DNA of 64,000 bases from Escherichia coli (lineage in GTDB: Bacteria; Pseudomonadota; Gammaproteobacteria; Enterobacterales; Enterobacteriaceae). Of the stretch, positions 3,790 to 59,565 are shown piece after piece; the stretch's first letter is position 1; the number at the start of each line of letters is the position of its first letter. Location: assembly GCF_003334405.1 (NCBI RefSeq), contig NZ_QOWM01000007.1; one strand, given 5' to 3'. The position numbers and the translations under genes are program-made. The notes under the pieces are model-generated. The model was not told where the DNA came from. It saw only the letters and a list, made by a program, of their open reading frames with translations, and made no database searches.

Positions 3790-3999
3790 AACCGTTTCGT
3801 CTTATCAGCCTACAGACCGCGCCTGACCTGTCGGGTGGATAAGACGTTCACGCCGCATCCGGTAATCTTTGCCCTGTTCCGTTTCGATCTTAACTCCAGC
3901 TCAAGCAACACCGTAAAAGTTGCAAAAACGTTAAATGCGTCACACATTTCAATGTTAAAGTGGTCGGCTTTTCCCCTGAAACATGCCACGGGTAACACC

Positions 4000-5190
4000 A
4001 TGAGTGAATTTATTGCCGAAAACCGCGGCGCGGATGCCATCACCCGACCGAACTGGTCAGCCGTTTTCTCGGTGGCGTTTTGTGTCGCCTGTCTGATTAT
4101 CGTTGAGTTTTTGCCCGTCAGTTTGTTGACGCCAATGGCCCAGGATTTAGGCATTTCGGAAGGGGTTGCCGGGCAATCGGTGACCGTGACCGCCTTTGTG
4201 GCAATGTTTGCCAGTTTGTTTATTACCCAGACAATTCAGGCTACTGACCGCCGCTACGTTGTTATTTTGTTTGCCGTTTTGCTGACGCTCTCCTGCTTGC
4301 TGGTTTCCTTTGCTAACTCATTCAGTTTGCTTTTAATCGGTCGTGCCTGTCTGGGGCTGGCGCTGGGCGGGTTCTGGGCGATGTCGGCGTCGCTGACCAT
4401 GCGTCTGGTGCCGCCGCGTACGGTGCCGAAGGCGCTGTCGGTGATCTTCGGCGCGGTTTCTATTGCGCTGGTGATTGCCGCGCCGTTGGGCAGTTTTTTA
4501 GGCGAGCTTATCGGTTGGCGCAATGTCTTTAATGCGGCGGCGGTGATGGGCGTGCTGTGTATTTTCTGGATTATCAAATCATTGCCTTCACTGCCAGGCG
4601 AACCCTCGCATCAGAAACAAAATACTTTCCGCTTATTACAACGTCCGGGTGTGATGGCAGGGATGATCGCCATCTTCATGTCTTTCGCCGGGCAGTTTGC
4701 TTTCTTCACGTATATTCGCCCGGTGTATATGAACCTGGCGGGATTCGGCGTGGATGGCTTAACGCTGGTGCTGTTGAGTTTTGGTATCGCCAGCTTTATT
4801 GGTACGTCGCTTTCGTCGTTCATTCTTAAACGTTCGGTAAAACTGGCCTTAGCAGGCGCGCCGTTAATACTGGCTGTGAGTGCGTTGGTACTGACGTTGT
4901 GGGGAAGCGATAAAATCGTTGCTACCGGCGTGGCGATTATCTGGGGGCTAACTTTTGCATTGGTTCCCGTCGGCTGGTCAACGTGGATCACCCGCTCGCT
5001 GGCCGATCAGGCAGAAAAAGCCGGGTCTATTCAGGTGGCGGTTATTCAGCTTGCTAATACCTGTGGCGCGGCAATCGGCGGTTATGCGCTGGATAATATT
5101 GGTCTGACTTCGCCGTTGATGTTGTCCGGCACATTGATGTTGCTGACTGCATTGTTGGTTACTGCAAAGGTGAAAATGAAGAAATCCTGA
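4000..5190 (+). CDS. nepI: purine ribonucleoside efflux pump (MFS)
   Basis: ORF track starts at 3835, but the MFS protein begins [10 protein letters not shown] at the ATG at 4000 (396 aa); 12-TM pattern. Confidence 0.88.
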
Positions 5191-52273: not shown

Positions 52274-53470
52274 ATGCGTGGAGATTTTTATCAGCAGTTA
52301 GCCAACGATCTGGAAACCGCTCGTGCGGAAGGATTGTTTAAAGAAGAGCGCATTATCACATCCGCTCAACAAGCGGATATCACTGTGGCGGATGGTAGCC
52401 ACGTCATTAACTTTTGTGCCAATAACTACCTGGGGCTGGCGAACCACCCGGAACTGATTGCGGCAGCAAAAGCGGGAATGGATTCTCATGGTTTCGGCAT
52501 GGCTTCGGTGCGTTTTATTTGTGGCACTCAGGACAGCCACAAAGAGCTTGAGCAGAAGCTGGCTGCATTCCTGGGGATGGAAGATGCGATTCTCTACTCT
52601 TCCTGCTTTGATGCTAACGGTGGCCTGTTTGAAACACTGCTGGGTGCGGAAGACGCCATTATCTCCGACGCACTGAACCACGCGTCTATTATTGATGGTG
52701 TGCGTCTGTGTAAAGCTAAACGCTATCGCTATGCCAACAACGATATGCAGGAGCTTGAAGCTCGTCTGAAAGAAGCGCGTGAAGCCGGTGCGCGTCATGT
52801 GCTGATTGCCACCGATGGTGTGTTCTCGATGGACGGCGTGATTGCCAATCTGAAGGGCGTTTGCAATCTGGCAGATAAATACGATGCCCTGGTGATGGTA
52901 GACGACTCCCACGCGGTCGGTTTTGTCGGTGAAAACGGTCGTGGTTCCCATGAATACTGCGATGTGATGGGCCGGGTCGATATTATCACCGGTACGCTTG
53001 GTAAAGCGCTGGGCGGGGCTTCTGGTGGTTATACCGCGGCGCGCAAAGAAGTGGTTGAGTGGCTACGCCAGCGTTCTCGTCCGTACCTGTTCTCCAACTC
53101 GCTGGCACCAGCGATTGTCGCCGCTTCCATCAAAGTGCTGGAGATGGTTGAAGCGGGCAGCGAGCTACGTGACCGTTTGTGGGCGAACGCGCGTCAGTTC
53201 CGTGAGCAAATGTCGGCGGCGGGCTTTACCCTGGCGGGAGCCGATCACGCCATTATTCCGGTCATGCTTGGCGATGCGGTAGTGGCGCAGAAATTTGCTC
53301 GTGAGCTGCAAAAAGAGGGGATTTACGTCACCGGTTTCTTCTATCCGGTCGTTCCGAAAGGTCAGGCGCGTATTCGTACCCAGATGTCTGCGGCGCATAC
53401 CTCTGAGCAAATTACGCGCGCAGTAGAAGCATTCACGCGTATTGGTAAACAACTGGGCGTTATCGCCTGA
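52274..53470 (+). CDS. kbl: 2-amino-3-ketobutyrate CoA ligase (glycine C-acetyltransferase)
   Basis: 398-aa product from [17 protein letters not shown]; the ORF-track entry 51755..53470 is an artefactual 5' extension overlapping hldD. Confidence 0.95.
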
Positions 53471-53479
53471 GGATGTGAA

Positions 53480-54505
53480 ATGAAAGCGTTATCCAAACTG
53501 AAAGCGGAAGAAGGCATCTGGATGACCGACGTTCCTGAGCCGGAACTGGGTCATAACGATCTGCTGATTAAAATCCGTAAAACAGCCATCTGCGGGACTG
53601 ACGTTCACATCTATAACTGGGATGAGTGGTCGCAAAAAACCATCCCGGTGCCGATGGTCGTGGGCCATGAATATGTCGGTGAAGTGGTAGGTATTGGTCA
53701 GGAAGTGAAAGGCTTCAAGATTGGCGATCGCGTTTCTGGCGAAGGCCATATCACTTGCGGTCACTGTCGCAACTGTCGTGGCGGTCGTACCCATCTGTGC
53801 CGCAACACGATCGGCGTCGGCGTTAACCGCCCGGGCTGCTTCGCCGAATATCTGGTGATTCCGGCGTTCAACGCCTTCAAAATTCCCGACAATATCTCCG
53901 ACGATCTGGCTTCCATTTTTGATCCCTTCGGTAATGCCGTGCATACCGCGCTGTCGTTCGATCTGGTTGGCGAGGATGTGCTGGTCTCTGGTGCAGGTCC
54001 GATAGGTATTATGGCTGCGGCGGTGGCGAAACACGTTGGTGCACGCAATGTGGTGATCACGGATGTTAATGAATATCGTCTCGAACTGGCGCGCAAAATG
54101 GGTATCACCCGTGCGGTCAACGTCGCTAAAGAAAACCTTAATGATGTGATGGCAGAACTGGGTATGACCGAAGGCTTTGATGTCGGTCTGGAAATGTCCG
54201 GTGCGCCGCCAGCGTTTCGTACCATGCTCGACACCATGAACCACGGCGGTCGTATTGCGATGTTGGGTATTCCACCTTCTGACATGTCGATAGACTGGAC
54301 AAAAGTGATCTTTAAGGGCTTGTTCATTAAAGGCATTTACGGTCGTGAGATGTTTGAAACCTGGTACAAGATGGCGGCGCTGATTCAGTCTGGCCTCGAT
54401 CTCTCGCCGATCATTACCCATCGTTTCTCTATCGATGATTTCCAGAAGGGCTTTGACGCTATGCGTTCGGGCCAGTCCGGGAAAGTTATTCTGAGCTGGG
54501 ATTAA
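53480..54505 (+). CDS. tdh: L-threonine 3-dehydrogenase
   Basis: 341-aa zinc-dependent dehydrogenase ORF ([19 protein letters not shown]). Confidence 0.96.
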
Positions 54506-54514
54506 CACGAACAA

Positions 54515-54538
54515 GGGCTGGTATTCCAGCCCTTTTAT
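54515..54538 (+). terminator. rho-independent terminator after tdh
   Basis: gggctgg-tatt-ccagccc stem followed by TTTTAT. Confidence 0.7.
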
Positions 54539-54743
54539 CTGAGGATAATCTGTTAAATATGTAAAATCCTGTCAGTGTAATAAAGAGTTCGTAATTGTGC
54601 TGATCTCTTATATAGCTGCTCTCATTATCTCTCTACCCTGAAGTGACTCTCTCACCTGTAAAAATAATATCTCACAGGCTTAATAGTTTCTTAATACAAA
54701 GCCTGTAAAACGTCAGGATAACTTCAGAGGTCGTCGGTAATTT

Positions 54744-55778
54744 ATGATGAACAGCACCAATAAACTTAGTGTTATTATTCCGTTATATAATGCGGGCGAT
54801 GATTTCCGCACTTGTATGGAATCTTTAATTACGCAAACCTGGACTGCTCTGGAAATCATTATTATTAACGATGGTTCAACGGATAATTCTGTTGAAATAG
54901 CAAAGCATTACGCAGAAAACTATCCGCACGTTCGTTTGTTGCATCAGGCGAATGCTGGCGCATCGGTGGCGCGTAATCGTGGGATTGAAGTGGCAACGGG
55001 CAAATATGTCGCTTTTGTCGATGCTGACGATGAAGTCTATCCCACCATGTACGAAACGCTGATGACCATGGCGTTAGAGGACGACCTCGACGTGGCGCAG
55101 TGCAACGCTGACTGGTGTTTTCGTGAAACGGGAGAAACCTGGCAATCCATCCCCACCGATCGCCTTCGCTCAACCGGCGTCTTAACCGGCCCGGACTGGC
55201 TGCGGATGGGGCTTTCTTCGCGCCGTTGGACTCACGTTGTCTGGATGGGGGTTTATCGCCGTGATGTTATTGTTAAAAATAACATTAAATTTATTGCCGG
55301 ATTACATCATCAGGATATTGTCTGGACAACAGAATTCATGTTTAACGCGCTGCGTGCGCGATATACCGAGCAATCATTATATAAATATTATCTGCATAAT
55401 ACGTCAGTGAGTCGGTTGCATAGACAAGGGAATAAAAACCTTAATTATCAACGTCACTATATTAAGATTACCCGCCTGCTGGAGAAATTAAATCGAAATT
55501 ATGCCGACAAAATTATGATTTATCCGGAATTTCATCAGCAAATAACTTACGAGGCATTGCGTGTTTGCCATGCGGTGCGCAAAGAGCCGGATATTCTTAC
55601 CCGCCAACGGATGATTGCCGAGATATTTACTTCCGGTATGTATAAGCGCCTGATTACCAATGTGCGCAGCGTGAAGGTCGGTTACCAGGCGTTACTGTGG
55701 TCTTTCCGCTTATGGCAATGGCGCGACAAAACGCGGTCGCACCATCGCATTACGCGTAGCGCCTTTAATTTGCGCTAG
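54744..55778 (+). CDS. waaH: GT2-family LPS inner-core glycosyltransferase (glucuronic acid transferase WaaH/YibD)
   Basis: 344-aa ORF with GT2 motifs (LSVIIPLYNAGD, VAFVDADDEV). Confidence 0.88.
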   Translation: MMNSTNKLSVIIPLYNAGDDFRTCMESLITQTWTALEIIIINDGSTDNSVEIAKHYAENYPHVRLLHQANAGASVARNRGIEVATGKYVAFVDADDEVYPTMYETLMTMALEDDLDVAQCNADWCFRETGETWQSIPTDRLRSTGVLTGPDWLRMGLSSRRWTHVVWMGVYRRDVIVKNNIKFIAGLHHQDIVWTTEFMFNALRARYTEQSLYKYYLHNTSVSRLHRQGNKNLNYQRHYIKITRLLEKLNRNYADKIMIYPEFHQQITYEALRVCHAVRKEPDILTRQRMIAEIFTSGMYKRLITNVRSVKVGYQALLWSFRLWQWRDKTRSHHRITRSAFNLR

Positions 55779-56724
55779 CGTTAAACTTCGCCGCTTCGGG
55801 CTGTTTGCCCCAGCCTTGCCACTGATGCTGGAAGTAAACGATCAGCGTGCTCTGGCTGATGCTTTCGCTTAATACTTCAAAGAAGCGATTAGCATAAACA
55901 GGTTCTATCGGTTTCTTCGGTTTGCACAGCTTCACGCCACGGAACGGATTACGCGGTGCATCAGGCACAGCGTTTTTCGGCGGTGTAGAAGTATCAACCT
56001 GCGGTTCATTCAGCAAGCTGCTGGCTTTCACCAGCGTAATGTCTGGCGGCAGGTTATAAACCATCTGTTGTAGCACGCGTACCGTTGAAGGGTGAGGATG
56101 CCCAATGGCAATGGTTGAACCGTTGCGACGCGCCAGATCAATTGCGCGATTAAATTGCACACGGATGTCCGCTTCGTTCTGCGAATCGTCGAGGAACACC
56201 TTCCGTTTGATCACCTTCACGCCAGTACCTTGCGCGGCGCGCATCGCCTGGGTATTACCGATGGTTACGCTGTCGAGGAAGTAAAGATTGTAACGCTCCA
56301 GTGCCTGCATCACTTTCTGCATACCAAACAGGTTAGAGGTCATCTTGCTACCCATGTGGTTGTTGATCCCCACGGCATAGGGCACGTTATTGACCGCACT
56401 ACGAATAATGCGCTCAATTTCGTCGCTGCTCATCTCCGGGCGCAGCGTATTTTTCTCCAGCGGCTGTTTACTCAGTGGTGCCATCGGGAGATGAATCAAC
56501 ACTTCGTGCCCGCTGTTATGCGCTTTGGTCGCCATCTCTCTGGCGTGCGGTGAATCGGGTAATACAGCGACGGAGATAGCGGAGGGCATCGCCAGCACCT
56601 GGTTTTCGTTGTGCGGGCGATACCCAAAATCATCAATGACGATGGCAAGTTTGCCAGCAAGTACGGGGGAGGAGAGCGCCAACAGAGCGGCAAATGCAAG
56701 AACGTTACGACGAAATGGAAACAA
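55765..56724 (-). CDS. yibQ: divergent polysaccharide deacetylase family protein YibQ
   Basis: 319-aa ORF with signal peptide; 3' end overlaps the waaH 3' end by 14 bp. Confidence 0.85.
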   Translation of the reverse strand: MFPFRRNVLAFAALLALSSPVLAGKLAIVIDDFGYRPHNENQVLAMPSAISVAVLPDSPHAREMATKAHNSGHEVLIHLPMAPLSKQPLEKNTLRPEMSSDEIERIIRSAVNNVPYAVGINNHMGSKMTSNLFGMQKVMQALERYNLYFLDSVTIGNTQAMRAAQGTGVKVIKRKVFLDDSQNEADIRVQFNRAIDLARRNGSTIAIGHPHPSTVRVLQQMVYNLPPDITLVKASSLLNEPQVDTSTPPKNAVPDAPRNPFRGVKLCKPKKPIEPVYANRFFEVLSESISQSTLIVYFQHQWQGWGKQPEAAKFNASAN

Positions 56725-56727
56725 AAC

Positions 56728-57987
56728 TTATCTTCCCAACCACGGCTGTGGATTGACCGCCTGACCCTGGCGGCGAATTTCGAAATAGAGTGAAGGCCGA
56801 CCCTGACCGCCACTGCTGCCCACCAGTGCAATTGGCTGGCCCGCGCGAACCTGCGAACCAACGCTCACCAGTGCGCTCTGATTATAGCCGTAAAGACTCA
56901 TGTCGCCTTTACCGTGCTCAACCACCACCACCAGACCGTAACCTTGCAGCCAGTCAGCCAGAATCACCCGACCGTCGGCAATCGCTTTAACTTCAGTACC
57001 TTCAGAGGCACCGATAACCATTCCTTTCCAGCGTAGTTCGCCCTGTAGCTGTTCACCATAGCGATGCAGCGTCGGCCCGCGAACCGGCCAGAATGCCTGA
57101 CCACGCGGCGCACCCAGACCACCGGTACGGGACATCAGCGATTTTTCGCTTTCAGTCGGTTTGTAGGTGGTGCCTTTACGCGTCGCTTCTTTCTGGCGGT
57201 CGCGAACCGCCTGGGCCTCACGCGCTTCTCGTTCAGCACGCGCTTTCGCCGCGGCTTCCGCACGGGCAATGCTGTTACGCAGACGGGATTCGTTGGCACG
57301 CAGTTCACTTAGCTGCTGCTGACCTTGCTGGATGGAAGATTCCAGCCCCGCCAGCGTCTTTTTACGCTCGTTCAGAGCCTGAGTCAGTTTCGCCTGTTGG
57401 GCGCGCTGTTCATATAACAGCGTTTGTTGCTCGCTTTGTTTCTCTTCCAGTTCAGCACGCTGCATGGCGACTTCTTCACGCGTTTGCTTCAACTGGGCAA
57501 TGGTTTCTTGTCGCGCCTGGTTGAGATAGCCGAAATAAGCCTGTAAACGCTGTCCACGCTGGCTTTCTTCACCGCTGAGAATTAGCTGAATACCGGTATG
57601 CTCGCCCTGACGGAATGCGGCATCCAGTTGTGCGGCGAGGCTGCGCTCCTGGGCGGCTTTTTGCTGCTCCAGTTTGGCAATCGACGCGTTCATCTCATCA
57701 ATCTGTTTATTGAGTTGATTGAGCGTGTTTTGCGTTTCGCGCAGCTTACGGGTGGCTTCAGAGATCGCTTCTTCCTGCTTTTTCAATTGTGCGAGCAGGC
57801 TTGCGCGTTGTTGTTGCTTTTGGCGTACCGCGCGCTCTTTCGCGGCGATATCGGCCTGAATAGATTTGAGTTGGTCACGCTCATCCGCGTGGGCGGAAAA
57901 GGCGCACAACAATACGCCAGCGCTAAGAACGCTGGCGTAGATGATGGGCCTGATTGCAAACCTGCGCGGTTTCACGGCCCGTGTCAT
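56728..57987 (-). CDS. envC: murein hydrolase activator EnvC (LytM/M23 domain)
   Basis: 419-aa product from MTRAVKPRRFAIRP; coiled-coil region and C-terminal LytM domain. Confidence 0.92.
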   Translation of the reverse strand: MTRAVKPRRFAIRPIIYASVLSAGVLLCAFSAHADERDQLKSIQADIAAKERAVRQKQQQRASLLAQLKKQEEAISEATRKLRETQNTLNQLNKQIDEMNASIAKLEQQKAAQERSLAAQLDAAFRQGEHTGIQLILSGEESQRGQRLQAYFGYLNQARQETIAQLKQTREEVAMQRAELEEKQSEQQTLLYEQRAQQAKLTQALNERKKTLAGLESSIQQGQQQLSELRANESRLRNSIARAEAAAKARAEREAREAQAVRDRQKEATRKGTTYKPTESEKSLMSRTGGLGAPRGQAFWPVRGPTLHRYGEQLQGELRWKGMVIGASEGTEVKAIADGRVILADWLQGYGLVVVVEHGKGDMSLYGYNQSALVSVGSQVRAGQPIALVGSSGGQGRPSLYFEIRRQGQAVNPQPWLGR

Positions 57988-58020
57988 GGTATTAATCGCC
58001 TTTCCCCTCATGGGGAGGGA

Positions 58021-59565
58021 TTATTCCACGATGAACAGCGGCTTACCAGTCATCTCTTGCGGGATTTCCATACCCATCAGCGACAACATGGTCGGCGCGA
58101 TGTCAGAAAGTTTGCCGCCTGCAACCGCTTTCACGTTCTTATCACCAACGTAAATCAGCGGAACTGGCAGGTTGGTGTGTGCCGTGTGTGCCTGACCCGT
58201 TGCCGGATCGCGCATCTGTTCAGCGTTACCGTGGTCAGCGGTGATCAGCAGTTGTCCACCCACGGACTCAACCGCTTTCGCGACTTCTTCCACGCAGTGA
58301 TCCAGTGCTTCAACCGCTTTAACCGCCGCTTCCATCACCCCGGTGTGACCTACCATGTCGCCGTTCGGATAGTTACAGATAATGGTGTCGTATTTGCCGC
58401 TCTTGATGGCCGCAACCAGTTTTTCGGTCAGCTCTGCGGAGCTCATTTCCGGTTGCAGATCGTAGGTAGCCACTTTCGGTGAGTTGATCAGAATGCGATC
58501 TTCGCCTTTGAACGACTCTTCTACGCCACCGTTGAAGAAGAAAGTAACGTGGGCATATTTTTCGGTTTCGGAAATACGCAACTGAGTTTTGTCGTTTTTC
58601 GCCATCCACTCGCCGAAGGTGTTAACCAGGGAAGCGGGTGGGTAAGCAACCGCAGTTTTGATGTCAGCGGCGTATTCGGTCAGCATCACGAAATCGACGT
58701 TAACCACTTTCTTACGCGCGAAGCCGTCGAAATCTGCGTTTACGAATGCACGAGTGATTTCGCGCGCGCGGTCAGCACGGAAGTTCATGAAAATCAGCGC
58801 ATCGCCGTCTTCCATTGCCGCATCTGGCTGACCTTCTGCACGAATAACGGTCGCTTTCACGAACTCGTCGTTTTCGTCGCGAGCATAAGCTGCCTGCAAA
58901 CCAGCAACGGCAGTATCGGCCTGGAACTCACCCTGCGCTAGAGTCAGCAGGTCATAGGCTTTTTCAACGCGATCCCAACGGTTATCGCGGTCCATCGCGT
59001 AGTAACGACCAATGATGGACGCTACGCGGCCTTTACCCAGCGCAGCAAATTTCTCTTCAAATTTTTTCAGCGAGGATTCAGCACTGCGCGGCGGGGTGTC
59101 GCGACCGTCAAGGAATGCGTGCAGGTAGATTTTTTCTGCGCCGCGTTCAGCTGCCAGTTCTACCATCGCCATGATGTGATCTTCGTGGCTGTGTACGCCG
59201 CCTGCGGAGAGCAGACCCATAATGTGTACTGCTTTACCTGCGTTTTTCGCTTTATCTACCGCGCCAGTCAGCACTGGATTAGCAAAGAAAGCGCGATCTT
59301 TGATTTCAACGTCCAGACGAGTCAGGTCCTGATATACGATGCGGCCGGCACCCAGGTTAACGTGGCCTACTTCGGAGTTACCCATCTGACGGTCAGGCAG
59401 ACCGACTTCCAGACCGGAAGCGTCGATCAGGGTATGCGGACGATTGGCCCACAGTGCATCCATTACCGGGGTTTTAGCACTAAAAATGGCGTTATCCTGC
59501 TGTTCTTCACGATAGCCATAGCCATCCAGAATCACCAGTACCATAGGTTTTTTAGAAACCGACAT
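58021..59565 (-). CDS. gpmI: 2,3-bisphosphoglycerate-independent phosphoglycerate mutase
   Basis: 514-aa product from [20 protein letters not shown]; ORF track extends 48 codons upstream. Confidence 0.95.

Follow-up and report, generated by a model that had tools for sequence, protein, structure and literature searches.

The waaH and yibQ (sddA) genes of Escherichia coli meet in an ordinary 14-bp convergent overlap

The closest described counterparts of the junction at which the E. coli genes waaH and yibQ converge are the short overlaps, a few 3' bases in length, between two genuine genes of opposite strand. Random extension of a 3' end to the next stop codon accounts for convergent overlaps generally, according to the model of Kingsford, Delcher and Salzberg (2007), as cited in PMC3887535. 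At the level of transcripts, 3' ends overlap at 276 of 370 convergent E. coli operons, by 286 nt on average, and most of these operons have an inefficient intrinsic terminator in their spacer (Conway et al., 2014). Other systems of comparable layout are excludons, i.e., opposite-strand neighbours with overlapping transcription and a tiny intergenic distance (Sesto et al., 2013; ExcludonFinder, 2025), bidirectional intrinsic terminators (Ju et al., 2019; Wang et al., 2022), and Rho transcripts in which a U-less stem-loop past the stop codon, a stretch richer in C than in G and a bicyclomycin-sensitive stop are found together (Dar and Sorek, 2018). Among the papers searched, none names both waaH and yibQ.

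The junction was analyzed here in a 64,000-nt stretch of E. coli DNA (contig NZ_QOWM01000007.1 of assembly GCF_003334405.1), hereafter the window (Table 1). The original prediction of a 14-bp convergent overlap between the two 3' ends, with no room for a terminator between the genes, was confirmed on both points: the sequence and its list of open reading frames place the ends of waaH (plus strand) and yibQ (minus strand) on the same 14 bp, which leaves zero intergenic space. An identical overlap stands in the RefSeq annotation of MG1655 and of CREC7837, a divergent clinical strain, and RefSeq also gives the overlap in the three sampled junction variants that diverge most. Since both boundaries are stop codons, they are unaffected by the choice of start codons. 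Of 5426 complete E. coli genomes, 5425 matched a 601-nt junction probe and 5418 matched one of 60 nt, i.e., the junction is present in about 5,420 of them. The two properties that define a convergent overlapping CDS pair, shared stop-proximal nucleotides and two real genes, are both found at this locus, the genes having orthologues in many genera and published functions. The overlap is real, has been annotated before and is ordinary. It is very probably a trivial meeting of two gene tails that serves no function of its own, and carries little biological weight.

Table 1. Features at and around the waaH/yibQ junction, in window coordinates.
Feature	Position	Strand	Remarks
tdh intrinsic terminator hairpin	54513..54534	unstranded	Term-seq 3' end at window 54538 (MG1655 3790287, primary tdh)
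waaH (yibD) CDS, UDP-glucuronate:LPS(HepIII) glycosyltransferase	54744..55778	+	344 aa; stop TAG 55776-55778
Rho termination region, waaH sense	54783 (MG1655 3790042 -)	+	~39 nt into the ORF, LB
envC-yibQ read-through zone, antisense to the 3' third of waaH	55441..55764	-	Adams et al., 2021, Supplementary file 2
13-bp stem-loop on yibQ mRNA	55715..55748	-	Folding; 17 nt past the yibQ stop
Imperfect palindrome across the overlap	55752..55781	either strand	10-bp hairpin, -14.4 / -13.3 kcal/mol
Shared stretch	55765..55778	both strands	Final 3.7 codons plus stop, each of waaH and yibQ
yibQ (sddA) CDS, periplasmic denuded-glycan-strand GlcNAc deacetylase	55765..56724	-	319 aa; stop TAA 55767-55765
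YibQ C-terminal tail, 14 codons (GKQPEAAKFNASAN)	55768..55809	-	Non-conserved, past ...QWQGW; outside PF04748
envC, upstream gene of the envC-yibQ operon	56728..57987	-	RefSeq annotation mapped over

Both genes are well identified, and the shared bases fall outside the family models on either side. With 634.7 bits, WaaH exceeds the cut-off (423) of the NCBIfam equivalog NF007482, and its residues 9-137 match the Pfam GT2 domain; the NF007482 model covers residues 1-334 of 344, and the overlapped residues lie beyond its end. When phosphate is limiting, this LPS glycosyltransferase transfers glucuronic acid onto heptose III in the core (Klein et al., as cited in bioRxiv 536201); its gene is accessory and induced by phosphate starvation. 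YibQ matches PF04748 (divergent polysaccharide deacetylase) at residues 28-238 (E 6e-76) and begins with MFPFRRNVLAFAALLALSSPVLAG, which to the eye resembles a signal peptide. Its earlier description as a putative polysaccharide deacetylase is outdated, as YibQ is SddA, a periplasmic GlcNAc deacetylase of denuded peptidoglycan strands that is co-transcribed with envC, and its residues 239-319 are reported to be disordered and not needed for in vitro activity (PMC12440217). The envC stop lies 3 nt ahead of the yibQ start.

The frequency of such junctions was estimated from the RefSeq annotation of five 50-kb stretches of MG1655 (250 kb) picked independently of the locus; a sixth stretch of 50 kb, the one containing waaH/yibQ, was read as well. 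Overlaps of 4-41 bp were found in 6 of the 32 intact convergent CDS pairs of the five unselected stretches. Three of these are 4 bp long (zapC/ycbX, yccX/tusE, and xseA/yfgJ) and the others measure 35 bp (nudG/ynjH), 38 bp (sxy/yccS) and 41 bp (cho/ves), while cueR/ybbJ abuts with zero gap. In the sixth stretch, yiaU/yiaV overlaps by 4 bp at 36 kb from waaH/yibQ. About one in five convergent E. coli pairs overlaps, and the waaH/yibQ overlap is no more than chance expectation. Fourteen codons staying open past the conserved end of YibQ have a chance of about (61/64)^14, or about 0.5. We see no material difference from the short overlaps accounted for by random extension: YibQ likewise continues through non-conserved codons to the next stop, the usual 4-bp (TTAG/CTAG) and abutting junctions occur in relatives, and the 14 bp exceed the commonest 4-bp class and remain under the overlaps of sxy/yccS, cho/ves, and nudG/ynjH.

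The junction was also compared among relatives of E. coli. A YibQ search restricted to one genome per species gave 80 loci, in which the yibQ and waaH frames were extended to their stops. The conserved part of YibQ always ends in ...QWQGW, after which come tails of 0-14 aa with unrelated sequences (79 loci). The original prediction had proposed conservation in other Enterobacteriaceae as a check, and the overlap is indeed found there, unchanged in place and size across 11 loci that represent 8 genera; the taxa are E. coli, E. albertii, four Citrobacter, Leclercia and Salmonella enterica subsp. diarizonae, as well as an Enterobacter, Silvania and Cedecea. When these loci are aligned without gaps, the bases of the stop codons are invariant or nearly so and the bases between them vary, the yibQ stop being TAA or TGA. 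All of them have a 14-residue YibQ tail, the last codons of which are antisense to the ...NL(R/G/S)* end of WaaH. Elsewhere the junction takes other forms. Some lineages overlap by 4 bp (TTAG or CTAG), the yibQ and waaH stops abut exactly in the C. freundii complex and in Kluyvera, and gaps of 6-113 nt occur in further lineages, two of them with a REP-like element. At the abutting junctions WaaH is 63-67% identical, and the one such protein that was scanned (L011) passes NF007482 with 539 bits. Although the junctions range from the 14-bp overlap to a 113-nt gap, the length of the WaaH C-terminus is constant within a lineage, the protein ending a fixed count of residues after the conserved W-R-D-K (17 or 18, depending on which of the two lineages it belongs to). 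About half of the sampled Enterobacteriaceae loci have no waaH at all. Among these, two Citrobacter loci (L010, L012) retain an "...INANAN*" YibQ tail and a 116-nt spacer, which we read as the scar of a deletion.

As a separate observation, the position of the 14-bp overlap is constant in 8 genera despite changes between the stops, which could reflect constraint rather than shared descent; the counterpoint is the occurrence in other lineages of 4-bp overlaps, abutting stops and gaps of 6-113 nt.

The overlap is also lost within E. coli itself. A +1 frameshift in the A7 run of waaH is found in 309 genomes, mostly O157:H7, and the frameshifted ORF stops 5 nt before the yibQ stop, without CDS overlap. 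Since this change removed the overlap in so many genomes, the shared coding stretch is dispensable. In other E. coli lineages, most of waaH or its 3' end is deleted and yibQ is untouched.

Genomes without waaH also point to how the junction may have formed. In three loci (L046, L080, and L082, from an Enterobacter sp., Cedecea neteri and a third Enterobacter sp.), yibQ directly faces tdh across a 40-42-nt spacer made of an A tract, a GC hairpin and a U tract, as in the bidirectional intrinsic terminators described by Ju et al. (2019) and Wang et al. (2022). In genomes lacking waaH, the hairpin equivalent to the one listed beside tdh in Table 1 is the single bidirectional terminator common to yibQ and tdh. 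In E. coli, waaH sits between yibQ and this old shared terminator, which stays beside tdh. The gene occupies the short convergent yibQ-tdh spacer, on the yibQ side of the terminator that is shared elsewhere, and the YibQ frame passes its conserved end for 14 unconstrained codons and finds its first stop 14 bp inside waaH. The overlap exists because this non-conserved tail extends into waaH. Neither family model reaches the residues encoded by the shared bases, a pattern expected from random 3' extension. As such, the junction is a clean and well-documented example of an accessory gene entering a convergent spacer and displacing a shared terminator, while the tail of the neighbour reads on.

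Transcription across the junction could be followed in published MG1655 data after mapping (MG1655 position = 3844825 minus window coordinate, from two anchor sequences; Adams et al., 2021). A scan for intrinsic terminators at the junction returned only a weak 6-bp hairpin inside yibQ (55841-55860) with no real U tract, and no Term-seq 3' end lies in MG1655 3788600-3789199 in LB at OD 0.4, in LB at OD 2.0 or in M63 (Adams et al., 2021). The same authors reported a Rho termination region at 3789384 (+), labeled "antisense waaH", which corresponds to window 55441 and lies 324 nt past the yibQ stop. In their DirectRNA-seq experiment, the reads upstream and downstream of this position changed from 106/28 without bicyclomycin to 187/274 with the drug (Rho score 5.55, p 1.8e-15), the coordinate being approximate because the method uses 800-nt windows. 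Given these bicyclomycin data, the envC-yibQ transcript enters waaH and is ended there by Rho, and termination of the yibQ strand within waaH was thus already covered by published work. A second region, at 3790042 (-) on the waaH sense strand, changed from 95/20 to 154/187 (Rho score 5.77, p 7e-13; Adams et al., 2021). As Rho stops transcription so early in the ORF, few waaH transcripts would reach the junction in LB unless the gene is induced.

Because there is no intergenic space, a full-length mRNA of either gene must carry antisense to the other. Published data agree with an extension of transcripts into the other gene for one strand only, that of yibQ, with its read-through of about 324 nt; on the waaH strand in LB, Rho stops transcription some 39 nt into the ORF. 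To call the antisense overlap obligatory was therefore an overstatement, all the more so as the 309 frameshifted genomes do without the CDS overlap. Nor does the arrangement stand out, since 276 of 370 convergent operons do likewise and antisense overlap is the norm. Similarly to the operons of Conway et al. (2014), yibQ-strand transcription runs several hundred nucleotides into the neighbour and is ended by Rho (Adams et al., 2021). In contrast with most of them, which have an inefficient intrinsic terminator in their spacer, waaH/yibQ has no spacer, and the old shared terminator is on the far side of waaH.

A plausible course of events on the yibQ strand would be that Rho acts on RNA left untranslated once the ribosome has departed at the stop codon, and that the stem-loop 17 nt further on, predicted at -23 kcal/mol, would protect the trimmed 3' end. 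Induced waaH transcripts would end likewise, inside antisense yibQ, and the resulting complementarity of the 3' ends would be incidental, as it is for most convergent operons of E. coli. The C/G ratio past the yibQ stop peaks at only 1.47, between +81 and +158 nt, a weakly suggestive rut composition. The arrangement resembles the Rho transcripts of Dar and Sorek (2018) in its U-less stem-loop past the stop, its mildly C-over-G stretch and its bicyclomycin-sensitive stop, but the likeness is one of geometry only, the stem-loop having no mapped steady-state 3' end. We regard it as a candidate 3'-end-protecting structure.

The same hairpins could be given a more active role. The palindrome across the overlap and the 13-bp stem-loop beside it might together form a U-less bidirectional element that places head-on polymerase collisions at the gene boundary, as Wang et al. 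(2022) put forward for convergent pairs, since both strands fold hairpins exactly there. The loop of the palindrome contains the yibQ stop, and one of its arms contains the waaH stop. The stem-loop reaches -23 kcal/mol (z -5.0) on yibQ mRNA vs. -16.8 kcal/mol on the waaH strand, and both hairpins past the yibQ stop have energies well below those of shuffled controls (z -5.0 and -3.0), an unusual stability, and are invariant in the sampled E. coli. Their stability, greater on the strand of the yibQ mRNA, hints at selection on RNA. Several results speak against a collision element, however. Neither hairpin has a U tract, the palindrome lacking one on either strand, and flanking A tracts are missing too, so that in contrast to the terminators of Ju et al. 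(2019) and Wang et al. (2022) the E. coli junction has neither the tracts nor a mapped 3' end, at or near the hairpins, in any of the three growth conditions. Reads from the yibQ strand pass the hairpins and drop only about 324 nt past the stop, in a bicyclomycin-sensitive manner. The stem-loop falls in the waaH codons for W-R-D-K-T-R-S-H-H; its full 13-bp stem is present in Escherichia only, and what persists in other genera is a 5-7-bp core lying on the conserved WRDK codons of WaaH. Covariation across genera is no better than in controls (about 74-74.6% paired, the slid control being higher, for 12 sequences from 8 genera) and supports the hairpins no further than coding conservation does, and an Rfam scan of 53000-58500 at E<=1 found no RNA family. 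A collision-placing element at this boundary is therefore unlikely.

Another possibility is that of an excludon-like arrangement, in which strong PhoB-driven waaH transcription during phosphate starvation would meet envC-yibQ head-on and lower SddA, and perhaps EnvC, either because polymerases collide or because RNase III cuts the duplex of the two 3' ends, thereby linking LPS core remodelling to septal peptidoglycan processing. The locus shares with excludons the opposite-strand neighbours, the overlapping transcription and the tiny intergenic distance, and several observations are in favor of such a role. No terminator separates the genes and the yibQ read-through into waaH is documented. 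Low phosphate induces waaH 46-80-fold in EDL933 (bioRxiv 536201), and in K-12 under low phosphate waaH RNA reaches about five times the level of envC. The dosage of SddA matters physiologically, as its excess causes cell chaining (PMC12440217). In addition, p19-captured dsRNA was found within yibQ, and mscL-arfA provides an E. coli precedent for convergent antisense crosstalk (PMC10070815).

Against this stands first the response to phoB. In K-12 under low phosphate, waaH RNA differs between wild type and phoB deletion by log2 2.1 (about 4.3-fold, q 1.6e-22), a contrast limited by waaH being not fully off in the deletion strain, whereas envC shows no significant change (log2 -0.4, q 0.19) and yibQ is absent among the listed rows (q up to about 0.57). 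The columns of this table (two wild-type, two phoB-deletion, log2 ratio, q) were deduced from the statement in the text that waaH is positively regulated. Reciprocal expression of waaH and yibQ, which is expected of an excludon, was thus not seen in the phoB comparison, and overlapping transcripts were found for the yibQ strand only. That envC holds steady at a roughly fourfold difference in waaH also weakens the notion that the overlap called obligatory is special. The pair is missing from the 165 convergent excludons listed for MG1655. Among the p19-captured dsRNAs listed, the two entries at this locus lie deep in yibQ (window 56537-56559), some 770 nt away from the junction. No listed dsRNA comes within about 300 nt of it, a weak indication of absence. 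Finally, about half of the sampled Enterobacteriaceae loci lack waaH, and several E. coli lineages have a frameshift or a deletion in the gene while yibQ is unchanged. The locus thus differs from described excludons in having no MG1655 listing, no reciprocal expression and no junction dsRNA among those reported. An excludon-like role is quite improbable, and no sign of regulatory coupling was found.

An evolutionary version of this idea would take the positional conservation in 8 genera, together with the two stable hairpins, as the outcome of selection for a terminator-less head-on junction at which waaH transcription trims SddA and EnvC. If true, phosphate-starvation LPS remodelling would be coupled to septal peptidoglycan cleavage through waaH transcription; we consider this very improbable.

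The idea that one annotated 3' end is wrong and that the proteins do not truly overlap has practically no chance and was rejected, the stops being unambiguous and conserved: although O157:H7-type strains have an earlier waaH stop and overexpressed His-SddA comes out truncated within its C-terminal region (PMC12440217), both ends are the first in-frame stops of frames with strong homology support, and frames and stop positions are kept across 8 genera. An earlier in-frame stop in other strains, which the original prediction had named as grounds for doubt, was thus found in O157:H7-type waaH, but it does not indicate a wrong annotation, since it results from a derived +1 frameshift rather than from the ancestral frame.

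An ordinary tail-to-tail overlap still has consequences for strain construction. Deleting the whole ORF of waaH or of yibQ takes with it the final four codons and the stop codon of its partner, so that 55765-55778 should be left intact when mutants are constructed. The Keio design reportedly leaves the last few codons in place and should be safe for the overlap partner. With no intervening terminator, a cassette that replaces waaH and carries an outward promoter transcribes into yibQ and envC, which is relevant when the phenotypes of ΔwaaH strains are read.

The spacer between yibQ and tdh, which holds waaH in E. coli, is a slot whose glycosyltransferase genes vary among Enterobacteriaceae. 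It is occupied by either of two WaaH lineages, one 73-96% and the other 63-67% identical to the E. coli protein, or, in Klebsiella, by a gene for an unrelated 262-aa GT2 that is convergent with yibQ at a 5-nt gap. In Enterobacter, it contains a GT4 gene together with a 304-aa ORF on the yibQ strand, and in some Enterobacteriaceae the slot is empty. The coordinates of these and further features are listed in the table.

Coordinates of features at the yibQ-waaH-tdh locus
Feature	Locus	Positions	Strand
yibQ-tdh slot	L072	3401-4189	-
yibQ-tdh slot	L053	3972-6107	+
yibQ-tdh slot	L011 (diverged WaaH lineage)	3928-4962	-
yibQ-tdh slot	window	54506-55764	
Widened Pseudocitrobacter junction	L054	3933-4047	
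Widened Pseudocitrobacter junction	L076	3882-3955	
waaH frameshift site (W-R-D-K codons)	window	~55722-55730	
waaH frameshift site (W-R-D-K codons)	L002	1760-1796	
Conserved YibQ C-terminal segment	window	55810-55920	-
First p19 dsRNA 21-mer	window	56537-56559	
Second p19 dsRNA 21-mer	window	~66 nt deeper into yibQ	

Several genomes lack all or part of waaH. Two Citrobacter loci, L010 and L012 (3950-4082), lack waaH, but their YibQ still has the tail "…INANAN*", the antisense of a WaaH C-terminus, and they carry a 116-nt spacer with the tdh terminator at its end; this arrangement looks like the scar of a waaH deletion. The 3' part of waaH is deleted in ETEC1748 (L004, 2501-2525), the deletion ending just past window ~55747, and most of the gene is deleted in Escherichia sp. 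MOD1-EC7003 (L007). These two deletions are independent, and yibQ with its tail is intact in both strains. In Pseudocitrobacter, a REP-like palindromic element, with the sequence GCCGGATAAGGCGTAGCCGCATCCGGC in the case of L054, sets yibQ and waaH 72-113 nt apart, so that insertions are evidently tolerated at this junction.

The O157:H7-type waaH harbors GCGCGAAAAAAACG in place of GCGCGACAAAACG, an A7 run producing a +1 frameshift. The resulting ORF specifies a 338-aa product whose last 9 residues are new, stops 5 nt short of yibQ and is considered a pseudogene in RefSeq; 309 E. coli genomes out of 5373 carry the frameshift allele. Nevertheless, according to a preprint (bioRxiv 536201), waaH is upregulated 46-80-fold on phosphate starvation in EDL933 and its deletion (ΔwaaH) causes a biofilm phenotype, while O157 LPS is devoid of GlcUA, an absence to which the frameshift may be relevant.

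Bicyclomycin data obtained in LB place a Rho-dependent termination region on the waaH sense strand at window 54783 (+), ~39 nt inside the ORF (Adams 2021). This location just within the gene suggests that premature Rho termination may act as an additional gate beside PhoB-dependent control; one ChIP-seq study detected no PhoB peak upstream of waaH.

Two RNase III dsRNA 21-mers captured by p19 both lie within the 5' part of yibQ, the second differing from the window sequence by at least one base. They thus indicate an antisense transcript in this part of the gene, which could originate from waaH read-through or from an internal promoter.

YibQ residues ~270-305 (PVYA.RFF.VL.ESI.QS.L..Y...QWQGW) are strongly conserved in all genera sampled, although the C-terminal region that contains them is reported to be disordered and not required in vitro (PMC12440217). 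Given this conservation, the segment probably has a role in vivo, such as localisation or partner binding.

Window 53480-56724 is not identical to the MG1655 locus (L001), as two residues differ in Tdh, one in WaaH and one in YibQ, whereas 55465-56065 shows 100% identity.
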